Of a DNA stretch of 64,000 nt, positions 13,261 to 33,810 are shown one piece after another (within the stretch, counting starts at the first letter, position 1; every line of letters starts with the position of its first letter). Under the pieces are notes generated by a model that worked only from the letters and a program-made list of their open reading frames with translations, had not been told where the DNA came from and searched no databases. This DNA comes from Bacillota bacterium (lineage in GTDB: Bacteria; Bacillota; Clostridia; Christensenellales; CAMQZB01), in assembly GCA_044426085.1 (NCBI GenBank), contig JAWXUU010000005.1:40598-104597 (forward strand). Direction: 5' to 3'. Both the position numbers and the translations under genes were made by a program.

Positions 13261-13529
13261 TAAATATAAAAATTGATTGTGGATTATCTGAATATATTGA
13301 GAAATTGCAGTATGAAAAGAATACTGCAGAAAGAGAACTAAGGATTGCAAAAGCATTGGGTTTCAAAAAAGAAACAGTTTGTGCTGCTTGCAAGAGAGCA
13401 AAAGTGGCACAAGTGAAGTATGGCACAGCGTGTGAAGAATTTGGAAAAATGCTAACTGAGGCAATTCCAAAGCTGCAGCGTTGGAACTTGGATTTTCAGG
13501 CGCGGGAGGTGACTTATGAAACGTCTTGA
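13257..13529 (+). CDS. Small (90 aa) helical protein, TTG start, coupled on both sides
   Basis: GGGAGG at 13242-13247 lies 9 nt before TTG 13257, which overlaps the upstream TGA (TTGA). Its 3' end overlaps the rSAM start by 14 nt. The ORF track shows it only as the tail of a longer artefactual ORF, 13101-13529. Confidence 0.6.
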   Translation: MINIKIDCGLSEYIEKLQYEKNTAERELRIAKALGFKKETVCAACKRAKVAQVKYGTACEEFGKMLTEAIPKLQRWNLDFQAREVTYETS

Positions 13530-14775
13530 ACCATTCCACGATAAAATGGGTAGGTTGTACGGAGCAATGCCACTCAATGTGACACTGCAAGTAACGGAAG
13601 ATTGTAACTTAGCTTGCACCTATTGCTACCAATGCAGTAAGAGCAAAAATAGAATGACATTCGATGTTGCGAAGCAATTTGTCGATGAACTTATCAACGG
13701 CAACTATGATAACTATTTTGTGAAAGGTGAGCGTGATGGCTACATCTTCGACTTTATTGGCGGAGAACCGTTCCTTGAAATTGACTTAATTGATAGGACA
13801 ACAGAATATATTCTCAGAACAATGTTGGAGCGTGGCATGGACACATCAAAGGTGATGTTCAGCTTTTCTACCAACGGCACTCTATATTTTGAAGAGAAAG
13901 TGCAAGCTTACTTGGATAAATATTTTGAATATATCTCACTGAGCATAACACTTGATGGGAACAAAGCCTTGCATGATAGTTGCAGAGTATTTCACGATGG
14001 CTCAGGCAGTTACGACATGGCAGAAAAGGCAATGAAGCATTGGCAAGCTAAAGGCGGATACGTTGGCACAAAGCTAACAATTTGTCACGAGAACTTGCCG
14101 TATCTTTCGGAGGCTGTTATCCATATGCTAGGACTTGGTATCGAAGAACTGCACATGAATTGCGTGTACGAAGATGTATGGAAAGATGGCGATGCAAAAT
14201 TATTGTATCAGCAGTTGAAAGTGATTGGTGACCATATCATCGATAGAGGAAAAGATATTGCTGTATCTATGCTAAACAGAGAAAACTTTCAGCCACTTCC
14301 AGAAACGGAAACACAAAACTGGTGTGGCGGAGATGGAAGAATGATAGCTTTGGACTATGCAGGCAGAATTTTTCCATGCTTAAGATACATGGGTTCAAGT
14401 TTGAAAAATCAAAAACCATTTGAGATTGGAAGAATCGGCGAGGGAATTGCAAAACAAGAAAACTATTGCTCACGTTGCAGTGTTCTTTCTTGCATAACAC
14501 GTCAGAGCCAGTCACCAGAAAAGTGTTTGACTTGCCCAGTCGCAAAAGGTTGTGGGTGGTGTAGTGCGTATAACTATGATCTATTCGGAACTCCAAACAA
14601 GCGTGCAACATATCACTGCGAAATGCACAAAGCAACAGCACTTGCGAATGCGTACTATTGGAACAAGCGATTCATAGAATTTGAAGTCGGCTTGCCACGA
14701 GAAGAAGTGGAAAGCCTAATAGGAAAGGAAGAGGCAGAGTGCCTAAGGGAGGTAATATTTGGCAACAGTTACTAA
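13516..14775 (+). CDS. Radical SAM enzyme with a C-terminal SPASM-type auxiliary Fe-S domain (anSME / peptide-maturase-like)
   Basis: CNLACTYC (CxxxCxxC) at residues ~30-37. C-terminal Cys pattern: WCGGDG...GRIFPC, then CSRCSVLSC, CLTCPVAKGCGWC and YHC. Confidence 0.85.
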   Translation: MKRLEPFHDKMGRLYGAMPLNVTLQVTEDCNLACTYCYQCSKSKNRMTFDVAKQFVDELINGNYDNYFVKGERDGYIFDFIGGEPFLEIDLIDRTTEYILRTMLERGMDTSKVMFSFSTNGTLYFEEKVQAYLDKYFEYISLSITLDGNKALHDSCRVFHDGSGSYDMAEKAMKHWQAKGGYVGTKLTICHENLPYLSEAVIHMLGLGIEELHMNCVYEDVWKDGDAKLLYQQLKVIGDHIIDRGKDIAVSMLNRENFQPLPETETQNWCGGDGRMIALDYAGRIFPCLRYMGSSLKNQKPFEIGRIGEGIAKQENYCSRCSVLSCITRQSQSPEKCLTCPVAKGCGWCSAYNYDLFGTPNKRATYHCEMHKATALANAYYWNKRFIEFEVGLPREEVESLIGKEEAECLREVIFGNSY

Positions 14776-16352: not shown

Positions 16353-17744
16353 ATGGCATCAATAACGAAAAGAGAGAATAAAAAAGGTATCGCATATAAG
16401 ATACAAGTAAAAGTAAAAGACAAAGGTTCGGGCAAAGACATAGTGAAATCAACTACATGGCAAGTGCCAGCTGGCATGAACGCAAAGCAAGCTGAAAGGG
16501 CGGTGATAGTTGAAGCTGAAAAATATGAAGAGCAAGTGAAGAAAATGCTGTCAAGTTCAGCGGATATAGATAGTGATAGCAAAATCACATTTGCAAAGTT
16601 CGCGGAAATATGGCTTGAGAAATGCAAGCAAGAGAACAGTGAGATATACTATGTGAACTCAAGAAAATGTATAAACACAGCTAATCAATATATAGGTGGA
16701 TATAAATTGACTGAGCTGAGTCCAAGAATAATTCAAAACTTCTATGGAAAAATAGATATGCTGACAATGATCACATATAAAATCACCCCTCACGTGGATA
16801 AAATCCGAGAGGCAATGAAAGAAAAGAGCATGAGATTCACGGACATGAAAAAAGGTAGCAATAACTTCACTGTAACAACTGTGCTTAATGGTAAGCCTGT
16901 CAAGCTGCAAACAGCTGAGCGGGTAAGCGAAATTCTAGGTCGCAAGGTGGAAGAACTGTTCGATGTGGAGAAAACTGAAAAGCCGTACGCTCACGAAACC
17001 ATACACAAAGTGAAAAGAACGGTGAGAGCAATATTGGCACTTGCCAAAAAGCAAAGGCTTGTTGATGACAACTATGCAACAGCTGACTACATCACATTCC
17101 CTAAAAAGCCAAAGGTGGAAATTGAGCATCTCGATGATGTGGGTGCAAAGAGATTGTATCAGGCACTTGAAACATGCGACAACCCGCAAAAGAAAATAGC
17201 GGTGCTGATACCACTGCTGACTGGCATGAGAAAAGGCGAACTATGTGGACTAGAGTGGGAAGATATAGACTTTGAGAAATCTACCATAAGCATAAAACGC
17301 AGTAGAATATCCGTGAACACAGTGGGTGTGATAGATAAGTCGACTAAGACTGAAAGTTCGGAAAGAACCTTAACAATGCCAAATAGACTCAAGGAAGAAC
17401 TGCTAATCTACAAGGCATGGCAAGAGGCTAGAATAGACACATTCGGAGATAGATGGGAGAACTCAGGGCGAATACTCACATCGGAATTCGGTGGCAAAAT
17501 ACACCCAAGTGTGCCAAATGGTTGGCTCAACGATATAGTGAAAAAAGCAGGTCTGCCACACGTAACTATGCACTCGCTTAGGCACACTAACATAACCCTT
17601 CAAATAATGGCAGGCGTGCCACTGGTCACAGTAAGCGGTCGAGCAGGACACGCAAGAACCAGCACTACAACGGATATATACAGTCACTTCATAAAAAGCA
17701 GTGATAAAGAAGCTGCAGATAAGTTGGATAGTATATTCGGATAG
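16353..17744 (+). CDS. int: Tyrosine site-specific integrase
   Basis: C-terminal catalytic pattern HSLRHT...GHARTSTTTDIYSH (R..HxxR..Y) and an N-terminal SAM-like domain. GGAGG RBS. Confidence 0.9.
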   Translation: MASITKRENKKGIAYKIQVKVKDKGSGKDIVKSTTWQVPAGMNAKQAERAVIVEAEKYEEQVKKMLSSSADIDSDSKITFAKFAEIWLEKCKQENSEIYYVNSRKCINTANQYIGGYKLTELSPRIIQNFYGKIDMLTMITYKITPHVDKIREAMKEKSMRFTDMKKGSNNFTVTTVLNGKPVKLQTAERVSEILGRKVEELFDVEKTEKPYAHETIHKVKRTVRAILALAKKQRLVDDNYATADYITFPKKPKVEIEHLDDVGAKRLYQALETCDNPQKKIAVLIPLLTGMRKGELCGLEWEDIDFEKSTISIKRSRISVNTVGVIDKSTKTESSERTLTMPNRLKEELLIYKAWQEARIDTFGDRWENSGRILTSEFGGKIHPSVPNGWLNDIVKKAGLPHVTMHSLRHTNITLQIMAGVPLVTVSGRAGHARTSTTTDIYSHFIKSSDKEAADKLDSIFG

Positions 17745-17753
17745 GATAGGACA

Positions 17754-17815
17754 TTATATAGTAAAGTACAAACACCCCTAGTGAAGATAAATTCTTCCGC
17801 CAGGGGTGTTTTTTC
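17754..17815 (+). repeat. Copy 1 of a ~61-bp terminator-containing direct repeat
   Basis: TTATATAGTAAAGTACAAACACCCCTAGTG...CAGGGGTGTTTT; near-identical to 18959-19019. Contains hairpin ACACCCCT(A)G/C(Y)AGGGGTGT plus a T-run. Confidence 0.85.
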
Positions 17816-17817
17816 TA

Positions 17818-17846
17818 TTGCAATTGTGTGTAAATTATGCTAATAT
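17818..17846 (+). promoter_or_regulatory. Sigma-A-type promoter for the cargo gene
   Basis: TTGCAA, 17-nt spacer, TAATAT. Confidence 0.5.
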
Positions 17847-17981
17847 ATATGCGTAAGTAGTACGTTCAAAATCACTTAGAATCGTTTGTTATGCCTAGAT
17901 TTTTAAAAGTGGAGGTGTACGCAGAAAGCCTTGCAGAATTTACTCTATTATATAGGAATATAATTCAAAGGAGTAAAATAT

Positions 17982-18956
17982 ATGAAAAACACACAAAAAG
18001 TTGAAAGATTTGATTATACAAAGATCGAATCGAGAGAAGATTTGAAATACTTTGGCATACATAAAAAATGTGGCAGAGTTATTATTGATACCGATAGGTA
18101 TCAAGAGATTCTTGAAGAGGATGGGATTGATAAATTTCTTCCTGTCGGTTTATTTGCCGATAGTAATGTATCATATTTCACGCCAAATAAGGTGAAACGG
18201 CATGACTATAAAATTAATATTTTTAGAGATTTAATATATAAACTCAAAAACGATTGGTTTGAAGAATACAAACCTATATTTCAAACAATTAAGTCGCCAG
18301 ATGAAGTGTATAATAGCACATTTCTGGATGCATTATCTGTTACGGGATGCTCGGAAGATTATGATAGCGTACAAGAAGAAGCTGTCATGGCGAAAATTAA
18401 AAGAATACCTACGTATAATTGGATTCTGCAAAATCTTTACTGCAGCTTTATATCAAAAATAACTGCAGAGATTGATAGATATGCATTCATAGTAATGGCT
18501 GAAATGGGTTATAAATCTACGGATTTTAGCATGCTTTCCTTTTTTCAATTTTCAGATGGATTACAAAAGGATAATAACGGGATAAAAATAAATAAATTAA
18601 AAAAATATAACGCTTATAATATGTTGCACAAAATTAATAATTTTTTGAAACATAACTCAATCGATTCGTATAACGAATTGAAAAAATATTATCCAGATAA
18701 TGTGCGCTCGCTAAAGAAAGATACAGCCAAGTCGGCATATCAAAATGGTATGTTTGCAGGAGATTGGATAGTCATAAAAGATGAGTATATAGATAATATT
18801 TTTGACAGTTTAATCTTATTTTTTGAAGATTATTGTAGAAAGTTTTTAAATGAAGATATGGATGACTCGATGTGGAACTACGATGAGTATTTTTTAGGCG
18901 CATACAAAGAGATTAAAAACTTGGATGTGTACTTTTATAAAGAGTATGGTTTTTAA
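17982..18956 (+). CDS. Hypothetical 324-aa protein (AT-rich cargo gene; candidate anti-phage function by context only)
   Basis: AGGAG RBS. Lys/Asn/Tyr/Asp-rich, no motif recognised. Bracketed by the duplicated terminator. Confidence 0.4.
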   Translation: MKNTQKVERFDYTKIESREDLKYFGIHKKCGRVIIDTDRYQEILEEDGIDKFLPVGLFADSNVSYFTPNKVKRHDYKINIFRDLIYKLKNDWFEEYKPIFQTIKSPDEVYNSTFLDALSVTGCSEDYDSVQEEAVMAKIKRIPTYNWILQNLYCSFISKITAEIDRYAFIVMAEMGYKSTDFSMLSFFQFSDGLQKDNNGIKINKLKKYNAYNMLHKINNFLKHNSIDSYNELKKYYPDNVRSLKKDTAKSAYQNGMFAGDWIVIKDEYIDNIFDSLILFFEDYCRKFLNEDMDDSMWNYDEYFLGAYKEIKNLDVYFYKEYGF

Positions 18957-18958
18957 TA

Positions 18959-19019
18959 TTATATAGTAAAGTACAAACACCCCTAGTGTAAGATGAAATT
19001 CTTCTGCTAGGGGTGTTTT
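18959..19019 (+). repeat. Copy 2 of the terminator-containing direct repeat
   Basis: See 17754-17815. Copy-to-copy distance is 1205 bp. Confidence 0.85.
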
Positions 19020-19036
19020 ATTTGTAGTTATTTTTA

Positions 19037-19918
19037 TTATATCCAAAGTGATAGGTCAACTTCTTTTGATATTCTTTTATAATAATTCTTGCCATCTTCG
19101 TGATAATCAAAAATGAATATTCCTATAAATTTATATCCCGCTTCTCCTAGTGCGTTTCTTGATTTGCCAAAGAGAATTCTGTTTGATGGTGTTCCACGTT
19201 CAAAGGATATTGAGTCTCTTGTGTCATTGACTTCGCACATTATTTCTTGATCTTCGGTCAATGTATTGACCCAACCTCGAGAAGAACCAGCTGTGGGCAC
19301 TCCATCAATTACGATTGCCATTTTGAGACACCAAAGATAATTTGTGCCATCTAAGTGGACGGAACTTTTCTGATAGCCTGTATAGTCCTTTCCGAAGCAA
19401 TTGGCAATTTCGTAAATTGTACTAAACGTTAAGTTGTCATCAACGTGGATTTTACCATTTTTTCTTGCAATTTCTGTTGGATTTTTGTCAACTTCCCAAG
19501 TGGAAAATTGCATGGTATTAATTCTGTGATTTATTATGTTTACGGCATTGTTAATTTGCTTTATGACATCATTGTAACTTAGGTCTGCACGTATGCGGAT
19601 CAAATCTTTTTCTACGTTGAAATTATTCAGAGCAGACAGAGCTGATTCAATACTGATTTCACGTTGTCTGTCGTGTGCTTTGTTTTCTTGATGATAAGAC
19701 TCGTCACATTCAATTGCTAAGTTAAGTTGGGGAAAATATAAATCAAGCAAAGAGTATTTGCCGTTACCTAAATTGACATACTGTTGGGAAACGGGTTGTA
19801 TATCATCACGATCCATTTTGTTCCAAATGGCGTTGATGATGAAATTCTCGTAGTCTTTCCTTTTTGTTCGAGAAAAAGTTTTGATTAAATAATTTAATTT
19901 TTTGTCAACAGCACTCAT
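19037..19918 (-). CDS. Putative PvuRts1I/AbaSI-family modification-dependent (5hmC / glucosyl-5hmC) restriction endonuclease
   Basis: 293 aa. N-terminal motif LLDLYFPQLNLAIECDESYH and C-terminal GYKFIGIFIFD...GKNYYKRISKEV match my memory of PvuRts1I (YLADLLFPQLNLYLEIDEAHH ... YRFLGVFQID...GKNIFKRINTKV). That protein is, as I recall, also 293 aa. This needs checking by alignment. Confidence 0.55.
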   Translation of the reverse strand: MSAVDKKLNYLIKTFSRTKRKDYENFIINAIWNKMDRDDIQPVSQQYVNLGNGKYSLLDLYFPQLNLAIECDESYHQENKAHDRQREISIESALSALNNFNVEKDLIRIRADLSYNDVIKQINNAVNIINHRINTMQFSTWEVDKNPTEIARKNGKIHVDDNLTFSTIYEIANCFGKDYTGYQKSSVHLDGTNYLWCLKMAIVIDGVPTAGSSRGWVNTLTEDQEIMCEVNDTRDSISFERGTPSNRILFGKSRNALGEAGYKFIGIFIFDYHEDGKNYYKRISKEVDLSLWI

Positions 19919-19940
19919 AATTCCTCCAAGATATTTGTAA

Positions 19941-19960
19941 AGCCACCTGCAAAGGTGGCT
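19941..19960 (-). terminator. Hairpin directly downstream of the tRNA
   Basis: AGCCACCT-GCAA-AGGTGGCT, a perfect 8-bp stem. Confidence 0.5.
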
Positions 19961-19964
19961 TTAG

Positions 19965-20039
19965 TGGTAGGCCCACCGGGAATCGAACCCAGAATTAATC
20001 CTTAGGAGGGATTTGTAATATCCGTTTTACTATGGACCC
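19965..20039 (-). tRNA. tRNA-Arg (anticodon CCU), CCA encoded
   Basis: Folded by hand. Acceptor GGGTCCA/TGGGCCT; D-arm GTAA-AACGGATA-TTAC; anticodon arm AATCC-CTCCTAA-GGATT; T-arm CTGGG-TTCGATT-CCCGG; then A-CCA. Confidence 0.9.
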
Positions 20040-20600: not shown

Positions 20601-20687
20601 TTAATATGATAAAATAACAGGTGTGGCATTGCCACGGTACTAATGAAATTTATCGCGGACGCGAGACATATATTTTTGGGAGGGACT

Positions 20688-23327
20688 ATGAAAAACAAGA
20701 TTTTTCGTTCGGCAATTGCAGTGATTTTGATTTTTGCAATGACATTCACGCTTGTGGCGTGCGGAAGCGACACGGCTGTGCAAACGACAACAGCGCCTAC
20801 AACTGCGCCAACTTCAGCACCAGAGGTTGAAGTGACAACTTCGGGGGCTGCGACAGCTACGCCAACAGTGACGGACACAAAAACTGAAGTTTCCGACGAT
20901 TTTTCTTTGAAGGCTAGCGGGGTTGATGGCGTTTTTGGCACTGACTTAGAAGATGACGACGACGTTGAAATTTCCCCAGGCTATTTCAAGATTTCATGGG
21001 ACAGCGAAGAAGCGCAAGATCAGCACTATGCACTAGATTTTGAAATCGACCTTTCAGGCGATGATGATGATTATTCATTCATAATTTCAATTCCTGCGGG
21101 CAACTCTTCTGCCACTCCAACATATGATATTGGAAGCTCGGTGGATAACACTTTTTCCGCAAGCACAGTATATGACGACGCATATCAAGCGACAATCGAC
21201 ACTCTTGTTGTTGTGCTTTATGAAGATTATATAATCATTCAACTTGAAAACGCCGACGAATACGAACTTTCCGCTGATGTGACAGTGACAGACAAAGCTG
21301 TCGACTACGGCGCTTGGAACGAAGAAGATGAAACAGAATTTGAATTTTCGCTTTCTGCAGAACTTGAAATTGAAAAAGAAGAAATAATAATAGAAATTGC
21401 CCCTGCTGTTATCAAAGCTGGCGAATATGAATTGCAAGTTTTGGCTGCGGGCACATATGATAGCAGTGTGAAATATTGGTACGACCAAGGCTTCACACCA
21501 AATTCTGACGGCGACACAATCGCAACAACTGTATACTTCCCAGAATATTTCGAGTTTGGCGGATACTATATTTCCCTTGAATATGAAATTGACTACACAA
21601 AAGAAGCCAGCGTTGGCTCGTACGCTGTTTCAATAACAGAATCATACAAAATTGGCACGCTAGACACAAGAGGTGATTTGGTTTACACAAACACTGTTTA
21701 TGACGATCTTGACGATTTGAACGACAACTTTGCAAACTATGAAATAACAGCGGTGAAAGACACTGCAGTTTACGTTATTTCGGAATATGACTATACAGAA
21801 CTTGCCGACGTGATCACTTCTATTGCGGAAATTGATTATACAAGTTTGAATGGCTTTTTTATAAATGGCAACATCGAAGTTCAACTTCCACTTGCAATTT
21901 CAAGATACAACGCACTTTCAACTTATCAAAAAGCGTTTCTTGATACTTTTGCCGATATAACATTCACAAACGTTTCAAAAAGCAATGTGGGTGCGTTTTT
22001 AGTTGATGCTATCGCAAATGACGACATTGATTATGTGACTGGCGAAATTTCTAGCACTGACGCTATTGCATACCGAGAATATATGGACTTTGCAATAGAA
22101 GCTTACGCGGATTACGCAGTGTACACTGCTTTTGATGAATATGCAGAAGATTCAGACTTGCCAAAAAATGGCGAAACTTTCAATATTTACAACAGCAATC
22201 ACACTTCAAGCTTCAACTTGGTGGACAGCTATTTCAACAATCTTTCTGATGACGATCAAGATGTTATAAAAACTGAGAATTCAGCATGGTATCAATCGTA
22301 TAAAAATGCCTATGATGATATCAAGGAATCGGAAATCGACAGCGTTGAACAACTTATTGTTGCAGCATACCAAGCTTATATCAAGGCACTCACAAACGGC
22401 GCTGATATCATATATCAACACAGCGATACAGCAGACGAAGTTGCTACGCAATGGGCATATATTTATTCAGAAGAAACACAGCTTCTAACAGCAAAGGCAA
22501 AAACTGCTTTTGATGCACTTTCAGAAGAGCAACAAGATTTCATGCAAGACATGAGTTATGAGCCATTGATAATAAACTACTACAATGCTTCTTCAGCAAA
22601 TGTGGTGGTGTTCAAATCAATGCAAAACACAGTGTATAACGCACTTGATTTGCTTGTGGAAATGGACGAAATGGTTGAAATTATGGTTGAAATTTGTCAT
22701 TATGTCAACATTGAAGACTATTCAACATCAATAATTCCATACACAAGATTGAATATGCTTGTATACGGTGGCGGTTATGGTGTTGGCTTATATTTCCCAA
22801 CATATTCTGAAACTGATGGAGCACAAGATTATAGATACGCAATGCAAGACCTTATAAACGCGCCAACAAGAAACTACGATGCGATTATCGCGGAATATAA
22901 AGAGTGGGCAACTTACATCACTGAGGTTGAAGTTTATAAAAATACAGCACTAATAGAATTTATGTCACAAATTTCTGCCGAAGCGAAGAAACTTGACGAA
23001 GATGATTATTCAAGCTACGTAATAAGTGGGGTTGCCGACACAAGTAACGCTGTTGCATGGCGTATTGTTGCGGCAATTATGTATGAAGATATCAGTGCTT
23101 ATATGGAATCACATGACGGCACATATGTTCTTACTGGTGAGTATGCACCTTCACTTTTCGATGCAACAGCAATCATTTTGACAAATGAAGATGTCGTTCC
23201 GTTCTTCTATGCAGGGTTCCTTAATGATAAAGATAACTTTGAAGACGTATACGAAAGCTATGACGACTTTATGGATGTCGACGATATTTTGGATTCATAT
23301 ATGGATGCGGTTTTGACAAATAATTAA
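20688..23327 (+). CDS. Large acidic lipoprotein, unknown function
   Basis: Signal peptide plus lipobox MKNKIFRSAIAVILIFAMTFTLVAC; a Thr/Ala/Pro linker; ~850 aa rich in Asp/Glu/Tyr. The start is moved to ATG 20688 (GGAGG upstream). Confidence 0.7.
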   Translation: MKNKIFRSAIAVILIFAMTFTLVACGSDTAVQTTTAPTTAPTSAPEVEVTTSGAATATPTVTDTKTEVSDDFSLKASGVDGVFGTDLEDDDDVEISPGYFKISWDSEEAQDQHYALDFEIDLSGDDDDYSFIISIPAGNSSATPTYDIGSSVDNTFSASTVYDDAYQATIDTLVVVLYEDYIIIQLENADEYELSADVTVTDKAVDYGAWNEEDETEFEFSLSAELEIEKEEIIIEIAPAVIKAGEYELQVLAAGTYDSSVKYWYDQGFTPNSDGDTIATTVYFPEYFEFGGYYISLEYEIDYTKEASVGSYAVSITESYKIGTLDTRGDLVYTNTVYDDLDDLNDNFANYEITAVKDTAVYVISEYDYTELADVITSIAEIDYTSLNGFFINGNIEVQLPLAISRYNALSTYQKAFLDTFADITFTNVSKSNVGAFLVDAIANDDIDYVTGEISSTDAIAYREYMDFAIEAYADYAVYTAFDEYAEDSDLPKNGETFNIYNSNHTSSFNLVDSYFNNLSDDDQDVIKTENSAWYQSYKNAYDDIKESEIDSVEQLIVAAYQAYIKALTNGADIIYQHSDTADEVATQWAYIYSEETQLLTAKAKTAFDALSEEQQDFMQDMSYEPLIINYYNASSANVVVFKSMQNTVYNALDLLVEMDEMVEIMVEICHYVNIEDYSTSIIPYTRLNMLVYGGGYGVGLYFPTYSETDGAQDYRYAMQDLINAPTRNYDAIIAEYKEWATYITEVEVYKNTALIEFMSQISAEAKKLDEDDYSSYVISGVADTSNAVAWRIVAAIMYEDISAYMESHDGTYVLTGEYAPSLFDATAIILTNEDVVPFFYAGFLNDKDNFEDVYESYDDFMDVDDILDSYMDAVLTNN

Positions 23328-23520: not shown

Positions 23521-23549
23521 TTGACAAATTTTTTTGTGGTGGGTATAAT
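23521..23549 (+). promoter_or_regulatory. Sigma-A promoter
   Basis: TTGACA, 17-nt spacer, TATAAT (both hexamers consensus). Confidence 0.8.
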
Positions 23550-23577
23550 AGCAACAATAAACCAAATATATAAACAC

Positions 23578-23847
23578 GTATGAGAAAAGACGCGGGAATG
23601 ATTTTAACGCTTTTCAGAGAGCAAACGTCAGGTGAAAGTTTGCAAGCTAGATTTTATTTTTATCCCTTTTCCAGTGGAGCAACCCAAAGAGCAATCGAGT
23701 AGGGGGCTACGGAATGGCACCGTAAAACTGCCAAGGACTTGTTAGAGTCTATTGAGTGGGCAAAGCTTGAAACTTTGTCAATTTGGGTGGTAACGCGAAT
23801 TTTTCGTCCCAATGAAATGCTAGGGCATATTCATTGGGGCTTTTTTA
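23578..23847 (+). promoter_or_regulatory. T-box riboswitch leader (tRNA-sensing transcription attenuator)
   Basis: GA-motif region ATGAGAAAAG, AG-bay AGAGAG, distal loop GGTGAAAG, T-box sequence AATTTGGGTGGTAACGCG (23780-23797), then terminator CCCAATGAA...TTCATTGGGG plus TTTTTT. Confidence 0.8.
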
Positions 23848-23914
23848 TTACCCCAAAAATGCAAGCATGGTTTATAAAAAGCAGTTTTCAAAAGTTATAA
23901 AACTTTGATAATAA

Positions 23915-23946
23915 ATGAAATTAATATGAAATTAATATGAAAATTA
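23915..23946 (+). repeat. 11-bp tandem ATGAAATTAAT x ~2.8 between the T-box terminator and the start codon
   Basis: Units at 23915-23925 and 23926-23936, plus a partial unit at 23937-23946. Confidence 0.6.
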
Positions 23947-23971
23947 CTAGGAAAAAATAAGGAGAAACAAA

Positions 23972-26245
23972 ATGGATAACCAAGTTAAAGAAATCGCGAA
24001 AAGAATAGCGGAACTTCGCCAAATAACTGGTCACACGGCGGAATATATGGCGGAAGTTCACGGCATTTCAGCGGAAGATTATCTTCGTGCGGAAAACGGT
24101 GAAGTTGATTTTTCTTATACATTCATGCACAAGTGTGCAAAAACATTCTCGGTTGACGTGTCGGAGCTTATTTCGGGTGAAGCGCCAAAGCTTTTCAAAT
24201 ATCAAATAACAAGATCGGGGGAAGGTCTTCCACTCAAACGCGAAAGTGAATTTGAATATGACCACCTTGCGGCAAACGTGAAAAACAGAAAATGTGATCC
24301 ATTTCTTGTAACTGCAAAGTATGATCCAGCCCTTGCAAACGGCGAAATCCCATGTTCTTGCCACGGCGGGGAAGAAATGAGCTACGTTGTGAAAGGCAAG
24401 CTTAAAGTTCAAATCGGCGATCACATTGAAATCCTTTATCCAGGCGACTGCGCTTATTATAACTCTTCAATCATGCACGGTATGGTTGCGGTGGACGGCG
24501 ATGCACAGTTTGTTGCAATCGTTTTGGAAGATGAAGCAATGGACGCCCAAAAAAGCGAGTTCCAAGTTCCAGAAATGGAAGAGCGCGTAAGATCAAGCGC
24601 TGATGCGGTTTATCGCAAATATGTTAAGCGTGAAGAAGATGGCAACGGCATTTTGAAAAACATATCTTTCAACATTCCTGAAAACTTCAACTTTGCATAC
24701 GATGTTGTTGATGAAGTTGCAAGAAAAGCTCCTGAAAAAACTGCTATGATGTGGGTTTCTGAAACCTTTGAAGATAAAAATATCACGTTTGACGATATGA
24801 AAGTTCAATCTGATAAATGCGCGAATTATTTCCTTTCTATGGGTATCAAACGCGGTGATAAAGTTATGCTTGTTCTTCGTCGTCACTATCAATTCTGGAC
24901 AGCAATTATCGCCCTTCACAAAATCGGTGCGGTTGTTATCCCTGCAACAGACCAACTTCTTGCAAAAGATTATGTTTACAGATTCAACAAAGCGGGCGTG
25001 ACGGCGGTTGTCGCAACGGCAAAAGGTATTGTGACTGATGAAATCGATAAGGCGCAAAAAGATTGCCCAACGCTTAAACTCAAGTTTGTTGTAAATGGCG
25101 AAGCGGATGGATATTTCGACTTTGATTTGGGTGTTGAAAACGCAAGAAAACACCTTGAAAGAAGAGAAACAAAATCAACAGACCCAATGCTTATGTATTT
25201 CACATCGGGCACAACAAGCTATCCAAAAATTGCAGAGCACGACTTCACATATCCACTTGGTCACTTTGTGACAGCAAAATATTGGCACCAAGTTCGTGAA
25301 GACGGTCTTCACTTCACAATTTCCGACACAGGCTGGGGCAAATCAGTTTGGGGCAAACTTTATGGTCAATGGCTTTGTGAAGCGGGTGTGTTCACTTATG
25401 ATATGGACAGATTCAAAGCGAGCGAAATCTTGCCAATGATTGAAAAATATAAAATCACAACTTTCTGTGCACCGCCAACAATGTATCGTTTCTTTATCAA
25501 AGAAGATTTGACAAAATACGATTTCTCAAGCGTGAAACACACATCAATTGCGGGTGAAGCATTGAATCCAGAAGTGTTTGATAAATTCAAACAGCTCACG
25601 GGCCTAGAACTTTTCGAAGGTTTTGGTCAAACAGAAACAACGCTTGTGGTTGCTAACCTTTATGGAACAACGCCAAAACCGGGTTCTATGGGCAAACCAA
25701 ATCCGCAATATAATGTAGAACTTTTGTCGGGTGATGGCTCGCCAGCCAAGCTTGGTGAACCGGGCGAACTTTGCCTTAATTTGAAAGACGGCAAGCCTGT
25801 TGGTATGTTCGCAGAATACTATCGCGACGAAGAAAAAACTGCCGAAGCGGTTTATGATGGCTACTATCACACTGGCGATATGGCGTGGGAAGATGAAGAT
25901 GGCTACCTTTGGTATGTCGGCAGAATCGACGACCTTATCAAATCTTCAGGATACAGAATCGGGCCGTTTGAAATCGAATCAGTTATCATGGAACTTCCAT
26001 ACGTTCTTGAATGTGCTGTCACAGGTGTGCCAGACGAAGTCCGCGGTCAAGTGGTGAAAGCAACAATCGTTCTTTCTAGCAAGGAAGGTAGCGAAGAATT
26101 GAAAGCTGAAATCCAAGAATACGTGAAAAAACACACAGCTCCATATAAATATCCACGTATCATCGAATTCATGACAGAACTCCCAAAAACAATCTCAGGC
26201 AAAATCCGCCGTGTTGAACTAAGAAACAACGGAGAAAATAATTGA
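23972..26245 (+). CDS. Fusion protein: XRE-type HTH plus cupin domain plus AMP-forming medium-chain acyl-CoA synthetase (ACSM/MACS-like)
   Basis: N-terminus IAELRQITGHTAEYMAEVHGIS (HTH). Cupin core YVVKGKLKVQIGDH...MHGMVA. Adenylation motifs MYFTSGTTSYPK, YHTGDMAWEDEDGYLWYVGRIDDLIKSSGYRIGPFEIES and PKTISGKIRR. Confidence 0.85.
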   Translation: MDNQVKEIAKRIAELRQITGHTAEYMAEVHGISAEDYLRAENGEVDFSYTFMHKCAKTFSVDVSELISGEAPKLFKYQITRSGEGLPLKRESEFEYDHLAANVKNRKCDPFLVTAKYDPALANGEIPCSCHGGEEMSYVVKGKLKVQIGDHIEILYPGDCAYYNSSIMHGMVAVDGDAQFVAIVLEDEAMDAQKSEFQVPEMEERVRSSADAVYRKYVKREEDGNGILKNISFNIPENFNFAYDVVDEVARKAPEKTAMMWVSETFEDKNITFDDMKVQSDKCANYFLSMGIKRGDKVMLVLRRHYQFWTAIIALHKIGAVVIPATDQLLAKDYVYRFNKAGVTAVVATAKGIVTDEIDKAQKDCPTLKLKFVVNGEADGYFDFDLGVENARKHLERRETKSTDPMLMYFTSGTTSYPKIAEHDFTYPLGHFVTAKYWHQVREDGLHFTISDTGWGKSVWGKLYGQWLCEAGVFTYDMDRFKASEILPMIEKYKITTFCAPPTMYRFFIKEDLTKYDFSSVKHTSIAGEALNPEVFDKFKQLTGLELFEGFGQTETTLVVANLYGTTPKPGSMGKPNPQYNVELLSGDGSPAKLGEPGELCLNLKDGKPVGMFAEYYRDEEKTAEAVYDGYYHTGDMAWEDEDGYLWYVGRIDDLIKSSGYRIGPFEIESVIMELPYVLECAVTGVPDEVRGQVVKATIVLSSKEGSEELKAEIQEYVKKHTAPYKYPRIIEFMTELPKTISGKIRRVELRNNGENN

Positions 26246-31722: not shown

Positions 31723-32259
31723 ATGGAAATCGGAATCAAAATCAAACAAATGCGTTTGTCGCTTGGGCTCACACAAGAGGAACTTGCCGACAGATGTGAA
31801 ATAACAAAGGGGTATATTTCCCAGCTAGAAAACGACCTAACCAGTCCTTCGATTGCAACGCTTTCGGATATTTTATCCGCACTTGGAAGTGACCTCAGCG
31901 AGTTTTTTGAAAAGGGTGGCAAGGATGAAAGGGTTGTGTTTTCTGAAGATGCCTTTATCATAAAGGAAACCGACGAAGGCAAGCTTACTTGGCTTGTGCC
32001 AAACTCGCAAAAAAACACAATGGAACCTATTTTGATGATTGTGAAAAAGGGGTGCGCAACAGAAGATGATATGCCACACGAAGGTGAGGAATTTGGCTAT
32101 GTTTTAAAAGGCAGAATCAAAATCAACCTTGGATCTAAAAGCTATATTGCAAAAAAGGGCGAGTCTTTTTATTACGTTTCTGATAAGACGCACAACATCG
32201 AAAGTATTGGCTCGGAAGATGCGAAGATTATTTGGGTATCTTCACCACCAAACTTTTAA
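31723..32259 (+). CDS. XRE-family HTH plus cupin transcriptional regulator (PuuR-like)
   Basis: IKQMRLSLGLTQEELADRCEITKGYISQLEN plus a C-terminal cupin; upstream of potABCD. Confidence 0.8.
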   Translation: MEIGIKIKQMRLSLGLTQEELADRCEITKGYISQLENDLTSPSIATLSDILSALGSDLSEFFEKGGKDERVVFSEDAFIIKETDEGKLTWLVPNSQKNTMEPILMIVKKGCATEDDMPHEGEEFGYVLKGRIKINLGSKSYIAKKGESFYYVSDKTHNIESIGSEDAKIIWVSSPPNF

Positions 32260-32352
32260 AATAGCAATTGAAATATAAAAACAATAAAGAAAAATAAAAA
32301 ACAACAAAATTTTTCATACATACATGACGCTGTCGCGTCGGGAGGAATAGAC

Positions 32353-33810
32353 ATGATTGACAAGAATCACGTAATCATTGATTTAAAAAGCATCACTAAA
32401 AGCTTTGGTGATTTTCACGCGGTAAAGGATTTGAGCCTTTTTGTGAGAAAGGGTGAATTTATCACTTTGCTTGGACCATCTGGTTGTGGCAAGACAACAA
32501 CGCTTCGCATACTTGCGGGTTTTGATATGCCAACTTCTGGTTCGGTTATCATCGATGGTGAAGATTTCACGTCAGTGCCTCCCCACCTTCGCCCTGTCAA
32601 CACTGTTTTCCAAAGATACGCACTTTTCCCACACCTTAATGTTTACGATAACATTGCGTTTGGATTGAAGCTAAAAAAATGGGATTCTGATAGAATTGAA
32701 AAGAAAGTCAACTACGTTTTGAAAGTTGTTGGCATGACTGATTATGAAGATAGGGATGTGGCTTCTCTTTCTGGCGGACAACAACAGCGTGTTGCAATTG
32801 CCCGCGCGATTGCAAACGAGCCACAAATCTTGCTTTTGGATGAGCCACTTGGTGCGCTTGATTTGAAGATGAGAAAAGATATGCAACTTGAACTTATCAA
32901 AATGCATAACGAACTTGGAATCACTTTCCTTTATGTGACGCACGATCAAGAAGAAGCGCTCACAATGAGCGATGTTATTGTGGTTATGAACGAAGGTGTT
33001 ATCCAACAAATCGGAAAGCCAACTGATATTTATAACGAACCTATCAATGCGTTTGTTGCCGACTTCATTGGCGACAGCAACATTTTGTCGGGCACGATGA
33101 AAAAGGACTATCTTGTTCATTTCGACGGCGTGGATGTTGAATGTGTTGACGGCGGATTTGAAGAAAACGAACCTGTGGACGTTGTTATTCGTCCAGAGGA
33201 TATATATATTGTTGATAGAACAATGAAAGAAGGCTATCATCACGGCGAAGTTATCTCTTGCATATTCAAAGGTGTGCATTATGAAATGGGCGTGAAAACA
33301 GAAAGCACAACAGAATATTATGTTCAAGATACAAAAGCTCGCCAAATCGGCGAACAAGTAAGCATATATGTGGATAGCGAAGATATTCACATCATGCATA
33401 AAATGCACCTCACAAACACTTTCAGTGGTGTTGTTTCTGATTTCTGCGAAGTGGAATTTGCCGGCGAAGTTTTCGATTGCAACACAAACCAACTTGCAAA
33501 AGGTGCAACTCTTTCGGAAGATAAACGCCCAATCGATGCAAGCGGAAACGAAATCAGCTTCAAGGGTGATAAAGTGAAAGTGGAAATCGACTTTGCAGAT
33601 GTGGAACTTACTGATAACCAAGAAGAAGGCACACTTGCAGGTGAAATCAAAACGATTCTTTTCAAGGGCAACCACTATCACCTTGGCGTGAAAACTGAAT
33701 ATGGCGACATGTTTTATGTGGACACAACAGATGTTTGGGACGACGGCGACAGAGTTGGTATCAAAATCCACCCTGAAAAAATCCGCCTATGCCACAGCGA
33801 GGTAGAATGA
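32353..33810 (+). CDS. potA: Spermidine/putrescine ABC transporter ATPase with an extended C-terminus
   Basis: Walker [10 protein letters not shown], signature LSGGQQQR, Walker B LLLDEP. 485 aa, with two TOBE-like C-terminal segments. Confidence 0.85.

Follow-up and report, generated by a model that had tools for sequence, protein, structure and literature searches.

A predicted isoleucine T-box leader upstream of a putative branched-chain acyl-CoA synthetase gene in a Christensenellales genome

Introduction

T-box leaders of class I normally regulate genes for aminoacyl-tRNA synthetases, enzymes of the standard biosynthetic pathways or transporters. The need of rumen and gut anaerobes for isoacids (2-methylbutyrate, isobutyrate and isovalerate) has been recognized since the 1960s; these bacteria make branched-chain amino acids from them by reductive carboxylation. 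In the literature that we searched, we did not find the genes for the activating step of isoacid use, or their regulation, described. CoA ligases that act on such acids include MacsMa from Methanosarcina acetivorans, with 2-methylbutyrate as the preferred substrate (PMC10455477), and MbcS from Staphylococcus aureus, which turns 2-methylbutyrate and isobutyrate into branched-chain acyl-CoA primers (PMC10026030, PMC11167679).

Here we analyze a T-box leader and the gene downstream of it in a bacterium of the Christensenellales (Bacillota, Clostridia). The stretch of DNA under study, called the window throughout, is 64,000 nucleotides long (assembly GCA_044426085.1, contig JAWXUU010000005.1, positions 40,598 to 104,597), and the gene encodes a 757-residue protein in which a helix-turn-helix (HTH)-like domain and a cupin are fused to an acyl-CoA synthetase. 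Taken together, our results point to an isoleucine T-box that gates the activation of 2-methylbutyrate for isoleucine synthesis through a VorB-type 2-oxoacid:ferredoxin oxidoreductase (VOR) and a branched-chain aminotransferase (BCAT), and we put the probability of this mechanism as a whole at about 70%.

The leader RNA

A consensus promoter followed by AGAGAG, a distal loop, a T-box sequence and a competing terminator had led a sequence-only reading to propose a T-box leader at this site, and each of these elements was found in place (Table 1). A covariance scan with the Rfam T-box model, RF00230, matched the leader over the whole model (E 1.4e-19), and the match was recovered again in a whole-genome covariance-model search. 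A default Rfam scan reported no T-box because the curated gathering score of the model is 93 bits and the leader scores 6 bits lower; it was the scan by E-value that showed the match.

Within Stem I, the distal loop GGUGAAAG is presumably the docking platform for the tRNA elbow. Further downstream, the antiterminator reads UUGGG-UGGUAAC-GCGAA...CCCAA, and the UGGU of its bulge (23788-23791) is predicted to pair with the 3' ACCA of a tRNA. Positions 23806-23812 are common to the 3' strand of the antiterminator and the 5' strand of the terminator, making the two folds mutually exclusive, and none of 200 shuffled sequences folded as well as the terminator hairpin. Judged by these features, the leader is almost certainly a genuine T-box of the functional type, and its predicted RNA architecture is that of an ordinary member of the family, apart from a degenerate K-turn and S-turn. 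As had been proposed, a single gene follows (an open reading frame, ORF, of 757 codons at 23972-26245), and beyond it lie a convergent gene for fructose-bisphosphate aldolase and then rho. Since the aldolase gene is convergent, the leader controls one gene only.

Leaders at related loci

We took 80 loci encoding relatives of the fusion protein from species-representative genomes. A T-box sequence, G[AG]GUGGUACCGCG, is present about 100 nt upstream of the orthologous gene in 68 of the 80, and most of the other loci, which have no T-box, are cut off upstream or come from Lentisphaerota. Stem I was compared in an alignment of 93 distinct sequences, in which specifiers were called by anchored matching plus alignment. 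The lower helix is 99.2% paired in these leaders, with compensatory changes, and the whole tested Stem I structure is 96.6% paired, a figure that drops to 20-46% if the 3' partners are displaced by 1-3 columns. For covariation, Stem I scored 0.553 against 0.226 in shuffles, and its score was equalled in 0 of 500 shuffles. At two loci, L098 and L099, the T-boxes are nearly base-for-base identical to that of the window, and the leaders of more distant relatives carry a canonical UGA...UGAG K-turn. The Rfam gathering score is reached by only 5 of the roughly 20 family leaders checked (15 loci), and the association of T-box and ligase has therefore probably escaped annotation.

The codon slot, located one spacer base 5' of the lower helix, is occupied by AUC in 59 leaders, GUA in 31 and GUC in 3, with no other codon found (n = 93). 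AUC is the usual isoleucine specifier in T-boxes. Neighboring registers are excluded because the base before the slot varies (CAU or UAU in the Ile class, UGU or CGU in the Val class) and because a shift of +1 yields the stop codon UAG in the Val class. Leucine-specific specifiers did not occur among the 93 leaders, and no further search was aimed at them. The two classes often occur together: in about 20 loci the genes form tandem pairs, in which an AUC T-box precedes the first copy and a GUA T-box precedes the second, some 2.6 kb further downstream; a few tandem loci lack a separate leader for the second copy. One related locus has a tRNA gene (L003:2502-2574) roughly 100 nt ahead of its Ile T-box leader.

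The specifier codon of the window leader

In the minimum-free-energy (MFE) fold of Stem I of the window leader, the internal loop has precisely AUCC (23662-23665) on its 3' side. A pair between G23589 and C23666 is possible and extends the lower helix, each strand of which has one base more in the window; the window leader and its relatives have the junction 'G|ACG' in common; and the T-box leader of pheS in the same genome, UUC-C-CUUU, has the same layout of codon, C and stem. The extra pair, the longer helix, the shared junction and the pheS layout together fix the register as AUC followed by C. On these comparisons we consider it very likely that the window T-box reads the isoleucine codon AUC and is specific for tRNA-Ile.

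The sequence-only reading had instead favored UUU (Phe, 23659-23662), with an enzyme that activates phenylacetate for phenylalanine synthesis. A run of U residues does precede the codon slot, so that UUU can be read by eye, and the UGGU bulge would also fit tRNA-Phe, which has A73. The slot itself, however, is the AUC-C directly before the CUUUUC stem, and UUU falls inside a predicted upper-helix/loop run, away from the lower stem. Among the related leaders the slot is AUC or GUN in 93 of 93 and UUY in none, the genome already has a pheS T-box (UUC) along with two PaaK-like/IorAB operons, and the closest characterized relative of the enzyme prefers 2-methylbutyrate. A phenylalanine specifier, already contradicted by the comparative data, is scarcely credible. 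UUA, AUU and UAU had been listed as further registers; an alternative to UUU was indeed needed, but AUC was not exactly among those listed.

A register one base further on would make the specifier UCC (Ser). This is the codon that the raw cmscan alignment sets under the codon positions of the model, because the lower stem of the model has only 4 bp, and the UCA, UCC and UCG found at this register in relatives are all Ser codons. Against a serine specifier, the G23589-C23666 pair lengthens the helix and makes C23665 the post-codon base, and the same shift gives UAG in the Val class and UCC in the pheS leader of this genome. The discriminator base also argues against it. The UGGU bulge fits a tRNA with A73, as found in the Phe, Val, Leu and Tyr tRNAs of this genome, whereas all three Ser tRNAs have G73 and could form only a wobble pair with UGGU; of the five further T-boxes in the genome, four can form a Watson-Crick pair with the discriminator base of their own tRNA. 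Finally, a metabolic logic leading from serine to this enzyme is absent, and we regard this register as highly improbable.

Another T-box of the same genome, that of aspS (C17:141831-142103, minus strand), apparently has AAC (Asn) adjoining its lower stem, and its bulge is UGGU although tRNA-Asn has G73. This arrangement may reflect a non-discriminating AspRS with tRNA-dependent Asn synthesis.

The enzyme and its family

Pfam domains in the window protein are Cupin_2 at residues 124-183 (1.8e-08), AMP-binding (PF00501) at 247-602 (1.7e-56) and AMP-binding_C (PF13193) at 667-744 (8.5e-23). The ANL motifs SGTTSYPK, YHTGD, GYRIGPFEIES and SGKIRR are all present, which confirms the fusion of a cupin to a complete ACSM/MACS-type synthetase that had been read from the sequence. 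The catalytic region is 55.5% identical to MacsMa (PDB 3ETC, E 2.5e-205), and the best NCBIfam match is MbcS (NF047394). With AcsA, the NCBIfam score (255) is so far under the cut-off of 725 that we do not consider the enzyme an acetyl-CoA synthetase; AcsA was not found in any of 41 genomes of the order. By homology, the window protein is most likely a short branched-chain acyl-CoA synthetase, with 2-methylbutyrate as its predicted preferred substrate.

Uncultured Clostridia of the gut and rumen very commonly have the HTH-cupin-ligase architecture, and all 8000 of 8000 scored candidates were significant. The closest homologues of the window protein are those at L099 (94% identity) and L098 (88%), and the next best are 57-61% identical.

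Isoleucine and valine classes differ at residue 456

The Val-gated enzymes group together as a single clade (33 members, support 100) in a tree of 104 family proteins, and this clade lies among Ile-gated lineages. The window protein branches basally with those of L098 and L099, and all members of that branch are Ile-gated. The specifier labels of L043_5668, L070_2980 and L062_708 are wrong in this tree, with no effect on the clade result. When residues were scanned for class specificity, one separated the two classes perfectly: residue 456, in the motif DTGW[G/A]K, is Gly in 66 of 66 proteins outside the Val clade, the window protein included, and Ala in 33 of 33 inside it. MacsMa also carries Gly at the equivalent position (DSGWGK).

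Two residues that line the acyl pocket of acetyl-CoA synthetases occupy the corresponding place (Ile362 and Thr363 in ACSS2; PMC10906504). By analogy, and from the spacing of the A4 motif, residue 456 would be a position of the acyl pocket, where a change from Gly to Ala would remove roughly one methyl group of space, which is the difference between 2-methylbutyrate and isobutyrate. Gly456 can be taken, at the level of sequence, as a putative mark of the Ile/2-methylbutyrate class and Ala as that of the Val class.

Enzymes of this family also occur outside T-box control. Three metagenome-assembled genomes (MAGs) of Lentisphaerota/Victivallales (L021, L034 and L047) encode the same fusion without a T-box, with Gly at position 456 in two and Ala in one. 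Their proteins group as a single clade among the Clostridia sequences, an indication of horizontal transfer, and the phylum is not known to use T-boxes. The window genome itself encodes a stand-alone Macs ligase (C23:123879-125540, L087:3380-5041; 553 residues) that is 49-50% identical to the catalytic part of the fusion. This paralogue reads DTGWAK, with Ala, has neither an HTH-cupin head nor a T-box, and is a candidate isobutyrate-CoA ligase under different control.

Pathway genes in relatives and in the window genome

In the 13 relatives whose sequence extends far enough downstream, further genes on the same strand follow that of the ligase, in the order ligase-(BCAT)-NTPase-ferredoxin-VorB-VorA-VorC. 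The set includes a P-loop NTPase of about 226 residues and a 2x[4Fe-4S] ferredoxin of about 70 residues, and its Vor genes are orthologues of those for the VorB, beta and gamma subunits in the window genome (50-72% identity). In L071, a class-IV (branched-chain) aminotransferase gene lies between the ligase gene and the NTPase-ferredoxin-Vor set. The conserved NTPase (L060:5271-5951, L071:4002-4685 and equivalents, in 13 loci) gave weak ParA/CbiA-like matches.

The window genome (2.02 Mb, 94.6% complete) has an operon for a VorB-type 2-oxoacid:ferredoxin oxidoreductase on contig 25, in which VorB scores 538.7 bits against a cut-off of 399 and the beta and gamma subunits are present, and one class-IV aminotransferase gene 16 kb from this operon. 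Neither ilvD nor ilvC was found in it, while both families were detected in all 14 control genomes; ilvC was also not found in the four fusion-bearing genomes checked, one of which is 100% complete. The fusion occurs in 17 of 40 genomes of the order, and ilvD is missing in 12 of these 17 compared with 10 of the 23 without the fusion.

Two IorA/IorB operons, each with a PaaK-like phenylacetate-CoA ligase gene, are also present (C29:96053-99601 and C31:38250-41870; L096 and L097), and no T-box was found at either at E <= 0.001. Their presence indicates that the aromatic (arylacetate) branch of the same strategy is served by other genes.

Several features are specific to the window. It belongs to a basal low-GC lineage, its leader is below threshold, and it has a single Ile-gated copy along with the ungated Ala-type paralogue, in a genome context without ilvC and ilvD where the ligase gene lies apart from VOR and BCAT.

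A proposed mechanism

The results above cover the RNA elements with their conservation and covariation, the class of codon, the family of the enzyme, the neighboring genes and the pathway genes present. From them we infer tRNA-dependent read-through, the substrate and the direction of flux. The consensus promoter would transcribe a leader of about 290 nt, whose Stem I would offer AUC to the anticodon of tRNA-Ile(GAU) while the tRNA elbow docks on the platform of AG bulge and distal loop. If the tRNA is uncharged, its 3' ACCA would pair with the UGGU of the antiterminator bulge, the more stable terminator would be blocked and the polymerase would read into the gene. Charged tRNA-Ile would be unable to make this contact, and transcription would halt at the U-run. 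The enzyme would then convert 2-methylbutyrate, ATP and CoA to 2-methylbutyryl-CoA, the VorBAC-type oxidoreductase would carboxylate this reductively to 3-methyl-2-oxopentanoate, and the branched-chain aminotransferase would form isoleucine. The pathway would be the organism's route to isoleucine, given the absence of the ilvC/ilvD pathway. Homology to MacsMa and the pathway genes also make it most plausible that, as had been suggested from the sequence, the enzyme activates an amino-acid-derived acid for amino-acid synthesis.

Several points weigh against this mechanism. On the RNA side, the leader falls short of the Rfam gathering cut-off by 6 bits; the K-turn at the base of Stem I is non-canonical, with the 5' UGA present and CCAG in place of UGAG on the 3' strand; and the S-turn positions, AGUA/GAA in the model, read CGGG/UUU and are not recognizable. 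The Rfam alignment favors UCC, so that AUC rests on the extra G-C pair and on homology, and tRNA-Ile(GAU), which probably lies in unassembled rRNA operons, was not found in the assembly. On the side of the enzyme, the MbcS score of 459.4 bits is below the equivalog cut-off of 850, which by sequence makes the protein a probable relative of MbcS, not an equivalog, and the putative pocket role of residue 456 is drawn from motif position and the Acs/ACSS2 literature, not from a structure of this protein. As for the pathway, the VOR and BCAT genes of this genome are not linked to that of the ligase and have no T-box control in the whole-genome RF00230 search, and the association of the fusion with absence of ilvD amounts to no more than a trend (Fisher p 0.12), with five fusion genomes that keep ilvD.

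The same isoleucine T-box and ligase could also serve lipid synthesis, with the acyl-CoA mainly priming anteiso branched-chain fatty acids; when isoleucine is short, 2-methylbutyrate would be scavenged for lipids and isoleucine would not be degraded for them. An isoleucine T-box is compatible with such a sparing strategy, and the best NCBIfam match is to MbcS, an enzyme of primer supply (PMC10026030, PMC11167679). The protein is, however, far under the MbcS equivalog cut-off, and in relatives the ligase gene is co-directional with those for BCAT, ferredoxin and VorBAC, the enzymes that join acyl-CoA to amino acid. In addition, a genome in which ilvC and ilvD were not found needs a source of isoleucine, and the parallel Val-gated paralogues fit a role in amino-acid supply. 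We therefore consider a mainly lipid-directed role unlikely and favor activation of 2-methylbutyrate for isoleucine synthesis.

The N-terminal module and the 11-bp repeat

The protein had been described as bearing an XRE HTH and a cupin. The cupin was borne out, but the HTH signature is weak, with a match to HTH_31 at residues 8-65 of 16.8 bits, below the cut-off of 27. Many family members do have precomputed Pfam matches to HTH_3, HTH_19 or HTH_31. An alignment of 50 sequences was used to model the structure of residues 1-215. The model has high confidence as far as residue 189 (mean predicted local distance difference test score, pLDDT, of 86) and predicts five helices followed by a cupin barrel. 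In Foldseek searches against the PDB, the best matches of this model were to HppE and HEPD/MPnS, with the Vibrio HTH_3 regulator 1Y9Q also matched, at E values of 3e-14 to 5e-13 (HppE 2.8e-14) and template-modelling (TM) scores of 0.37-0.50. HppE and HEPD/MPnS are enzymes that combine an HTH-like alpha domain with a cupin site of the 2-His-1-Glu type. Residues H131, E135 and H169 are invariant in the 50 sequences and fit an H-x3-E...H metal triad, a predicted metal site.

The same genome also encodes the head as a separate protein: a stand-alone HTH and Cupin_2 protein (C32 ~67861-68589; L088:3362-4090, minus strand) is 41% identical to residues 1-185. Its gene adjoins a phosphofructokinase gene.

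An 11-bp tandem repeat between the terminator and the ribosome-binding site (23915-23954) had been noted in the sequence and is real. We could not uphold its proposed role as an operator for the HTH. The repeat is absent in L099 and L098 (94% and 88% protein identity) despite their near-identical T-boxes, the AT-rich spacer in which it lies is hypervariable and not conserved in these two loci, and the motif is not enriched within the 64-kb window, where it occurs at chance frequency. We read the repeat, given its absence in these relatives and its chance frequency, as slippage in an AT-rich spacer, and on these comparisons it is probably non-functional. The proposed repeat thus fails as a conserved operator near the gene's own promoter, and no systematic search for other conserved repeats was made.

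These observations bear on the idea that the HTH-cupin head makes the protein a DNA-binding, autoregulating 'trigger enzyme' under dual control, with the repeat as operator. The predicted fold is that of XRE-cupin regulators, with 1Y9Q among the best Foldseek matches, Pfam HTH matches are found in many family members, and the Lentisphaerota relatives retain the module without any T-box. Against this stand the loss of the repeat in the closest relatives and the sub-threshold HTH score, which contrasts with 60.7 for a bona fide PuuR-like regulator encoded in the same window. The family consensus of the putative recognition helix is acidic (S-x-E-E-Y-L), and the best structural matches are to HppE/HEPD-type enzymes, for whose HTH-like domain we know of no DNA binding. 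Autoregulation of this kind appears very unlikely. We rejected net charge as an indicator of DNA binding: the HTH region has -6 compared with -5 in the PuuR-like regulator, which is equally acidic, so that net charge does not discriminate. The latter, a 178-residue HTH_3 and cupin protein, is encoded directly upstream of the ATPase gene of a potA-type spermidine/putrescine ABC transporter (window 31723-33810).

A more speculative possibility is that the head is a new regulatory module for adenylate-forming ligases, which would sense a small molecule and either gate the ligase allosterically or bind nucleic acid. Combined with Gly/Ala456 and the paired Ile and Val T-boxes, it would be part of a modular, tRNA-gated system for salvage of isoacids into amino acids that is widespread in gut and rumen Clostridia. 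What the head senses could be the amino acid made at the end of the pathway, the corresponding 2-oxo acid, the acyl-CoA or a metal/redox signal. If this were true, each unit would combine an 'amino acid needed' signal, given by the T-box through tRNA charging, with a second input at the protein level.

Table 1 Sequence features of the leader and of the gene it precedes (window coordinates).
Feature	Position	Strand	Evidence
Sigma-70-type promoter, TTGACA-17 nt-TATAAT	23521..23549	+	12/12 consensus match
T-box leader, full RF00230 model	23570..23814	+	87.1 bits, E 1.4e-19, model positions 1-219 of 219
Stem I lower helix, 5' strand GAAAAG	23584..23589	+	pairs with 23666-23671 in MFE fold
Stem I AG bulge, AGAGAG	23616..23621	+	aligned to model AGAGA; AGAGA invariant in 93 leaders
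Stem I distal loop, GGTGAAAG / GGUGAAAG	23631..23638	+	aligned to model GGUGaaAg
Predicted specifier codon AUC (Ile), then C23665	23662..23664	+	MFE fold; family columns; pheS T-box layout
Stem I lower helix, 3' strand CUUUUC	23666..23671	+	MFE fold
T-box sequence, AATTTGGGTGGTAACGCG	23780..23797	+	read from sequence; aligned to model
Antiterminator: A1 UUGGG/CCCAA, 7-nt bulge UGGUAAC, helix A2	23783..23812	+	fold -7.8 kcal/mol
Intrinsic terminator, stem 23806-23840, U-run 23841-23846	23806..23846	+	-20.4 kcal/mol, z -5.4
11-bp tandem repeat ATGAAATTAAT, 3.5 copies	23915..23954	+	Tandem Repeats Finder (TRF) score 57
Ribosome-binding site AAGGAG, 7 nt ahead of ATG	23959..23964	+	sequence; kept in L098 and L099
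Coding sequence, 757 residues: HTH-like (~1-70), cupin (~85-185), linker, MACS-type acyl-CoA synthetase (~227-754)	23972..26245	+	profile searches, alignment, structure model
Codon GGC for Gly456 in DTGWGK, A4-motif position	25337..25339	+	class scan

Other features of the window

Immediately upstream of the T-box promoter lies an ORF of 894 codons (20643-23327) with no NCBIfam match, and an equivalent gene for 874 residues lies upstream in L098. Downstream of the aldolase gene, on the minus strand, there is a terminator-like hairpin with an 18-bp stem (26595-26557). Further upstream, the stretch 16353-20039 holds a gene for a tyrosine recombinase (463 residues), two ORFs without family matches and a minus-strand tRNA gene (19968-20039), which is probably a tRNA-Arg with the anticodon CCU as read by eye; this stretch may be an element that integrated next to the tRNA gene. 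At 13516-14775 lies a gene for a radical SAM peptide maturase with a CXXX-repeat target (TIGR04115, 430 bits), which suggests a cluster for a ribosomally synthesized and post-translationally modified peptide (RiPP).

Discussion

The locus and its roughly 90 relatives provide a gene-level ligase candidate for isoacid activation, with Gly or Ala at position 456 as a sequence marker for the substrate class. The control logic would be direct, with uncharged tRNA-Ile or tRNA-Val switching on the enzyme that activates the matching acid, and the T-box regulon would be extended to a new class of target gene, most of whose leaders are hidden by the Rfam gathering cut-off. The locus also draws attention to a strictly conserved HTH-cupin module on a metabolic enzyme. 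These findings may be relevant to isoacid feed supplementation, to models of cross-feeding in the gut and to the annotation of auxotrophies in MAGs. In full-text searches of the literature, we did not find described a pairing of Ile or Val T-boxes with branched-acid CoA ligases, or an HTH-cupin head fused to such ligases.

Of the systems already described, XRE-HTH and cupin regulators (PuuR type, 1Y9Q) have a helix bundle and a cupin that resemble the predicted fold of the head, although the HTH signature is weak in the window protein. The residues H131-x3-E135...H169 resemble the facial triad of HppE, among the HppE/HEPD enzymes, but in the window protein the module is fused to a ligase. The TM-scores of just 0.37-0.50 indicate that the orientation of the domains differs from that in HppE and 1Y9Q, and an O2-dependent reaction like that of HppE is implausible in this anaerobe.

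MacsMa shares the Gly of the DxGWGK motif with the window enzyme, and its 'alternate' pocket Trp (Trp259) is kept as W438. Unlike the window enzyme, it has no HTH-cupin head, and it has no T-box because it is archaeal. We know of no T-box on mbcS. The S. aureus enzyme activates 2-methylbutyrate and isobutyrate (PMC10026030), feeds the synthesis of fatty-acid primers and lacks the N-terminal module of the window protein.

The leader itself shares Stem I, the specifier loop, the AG bulge, the distal loop, the UGGN bulge and the antiterminator/terminator pair with class I transcriptional T-boxes such as those of ileS, ilv-leu, B. subtilis tyrS and glyQS. It differs from them in its degenerate K-turn and S-turn and in the base after the codon, which is C rather than a purine. 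It also differs in its target, since the gene that it regulates encodes an acyl-CoA synthetase.

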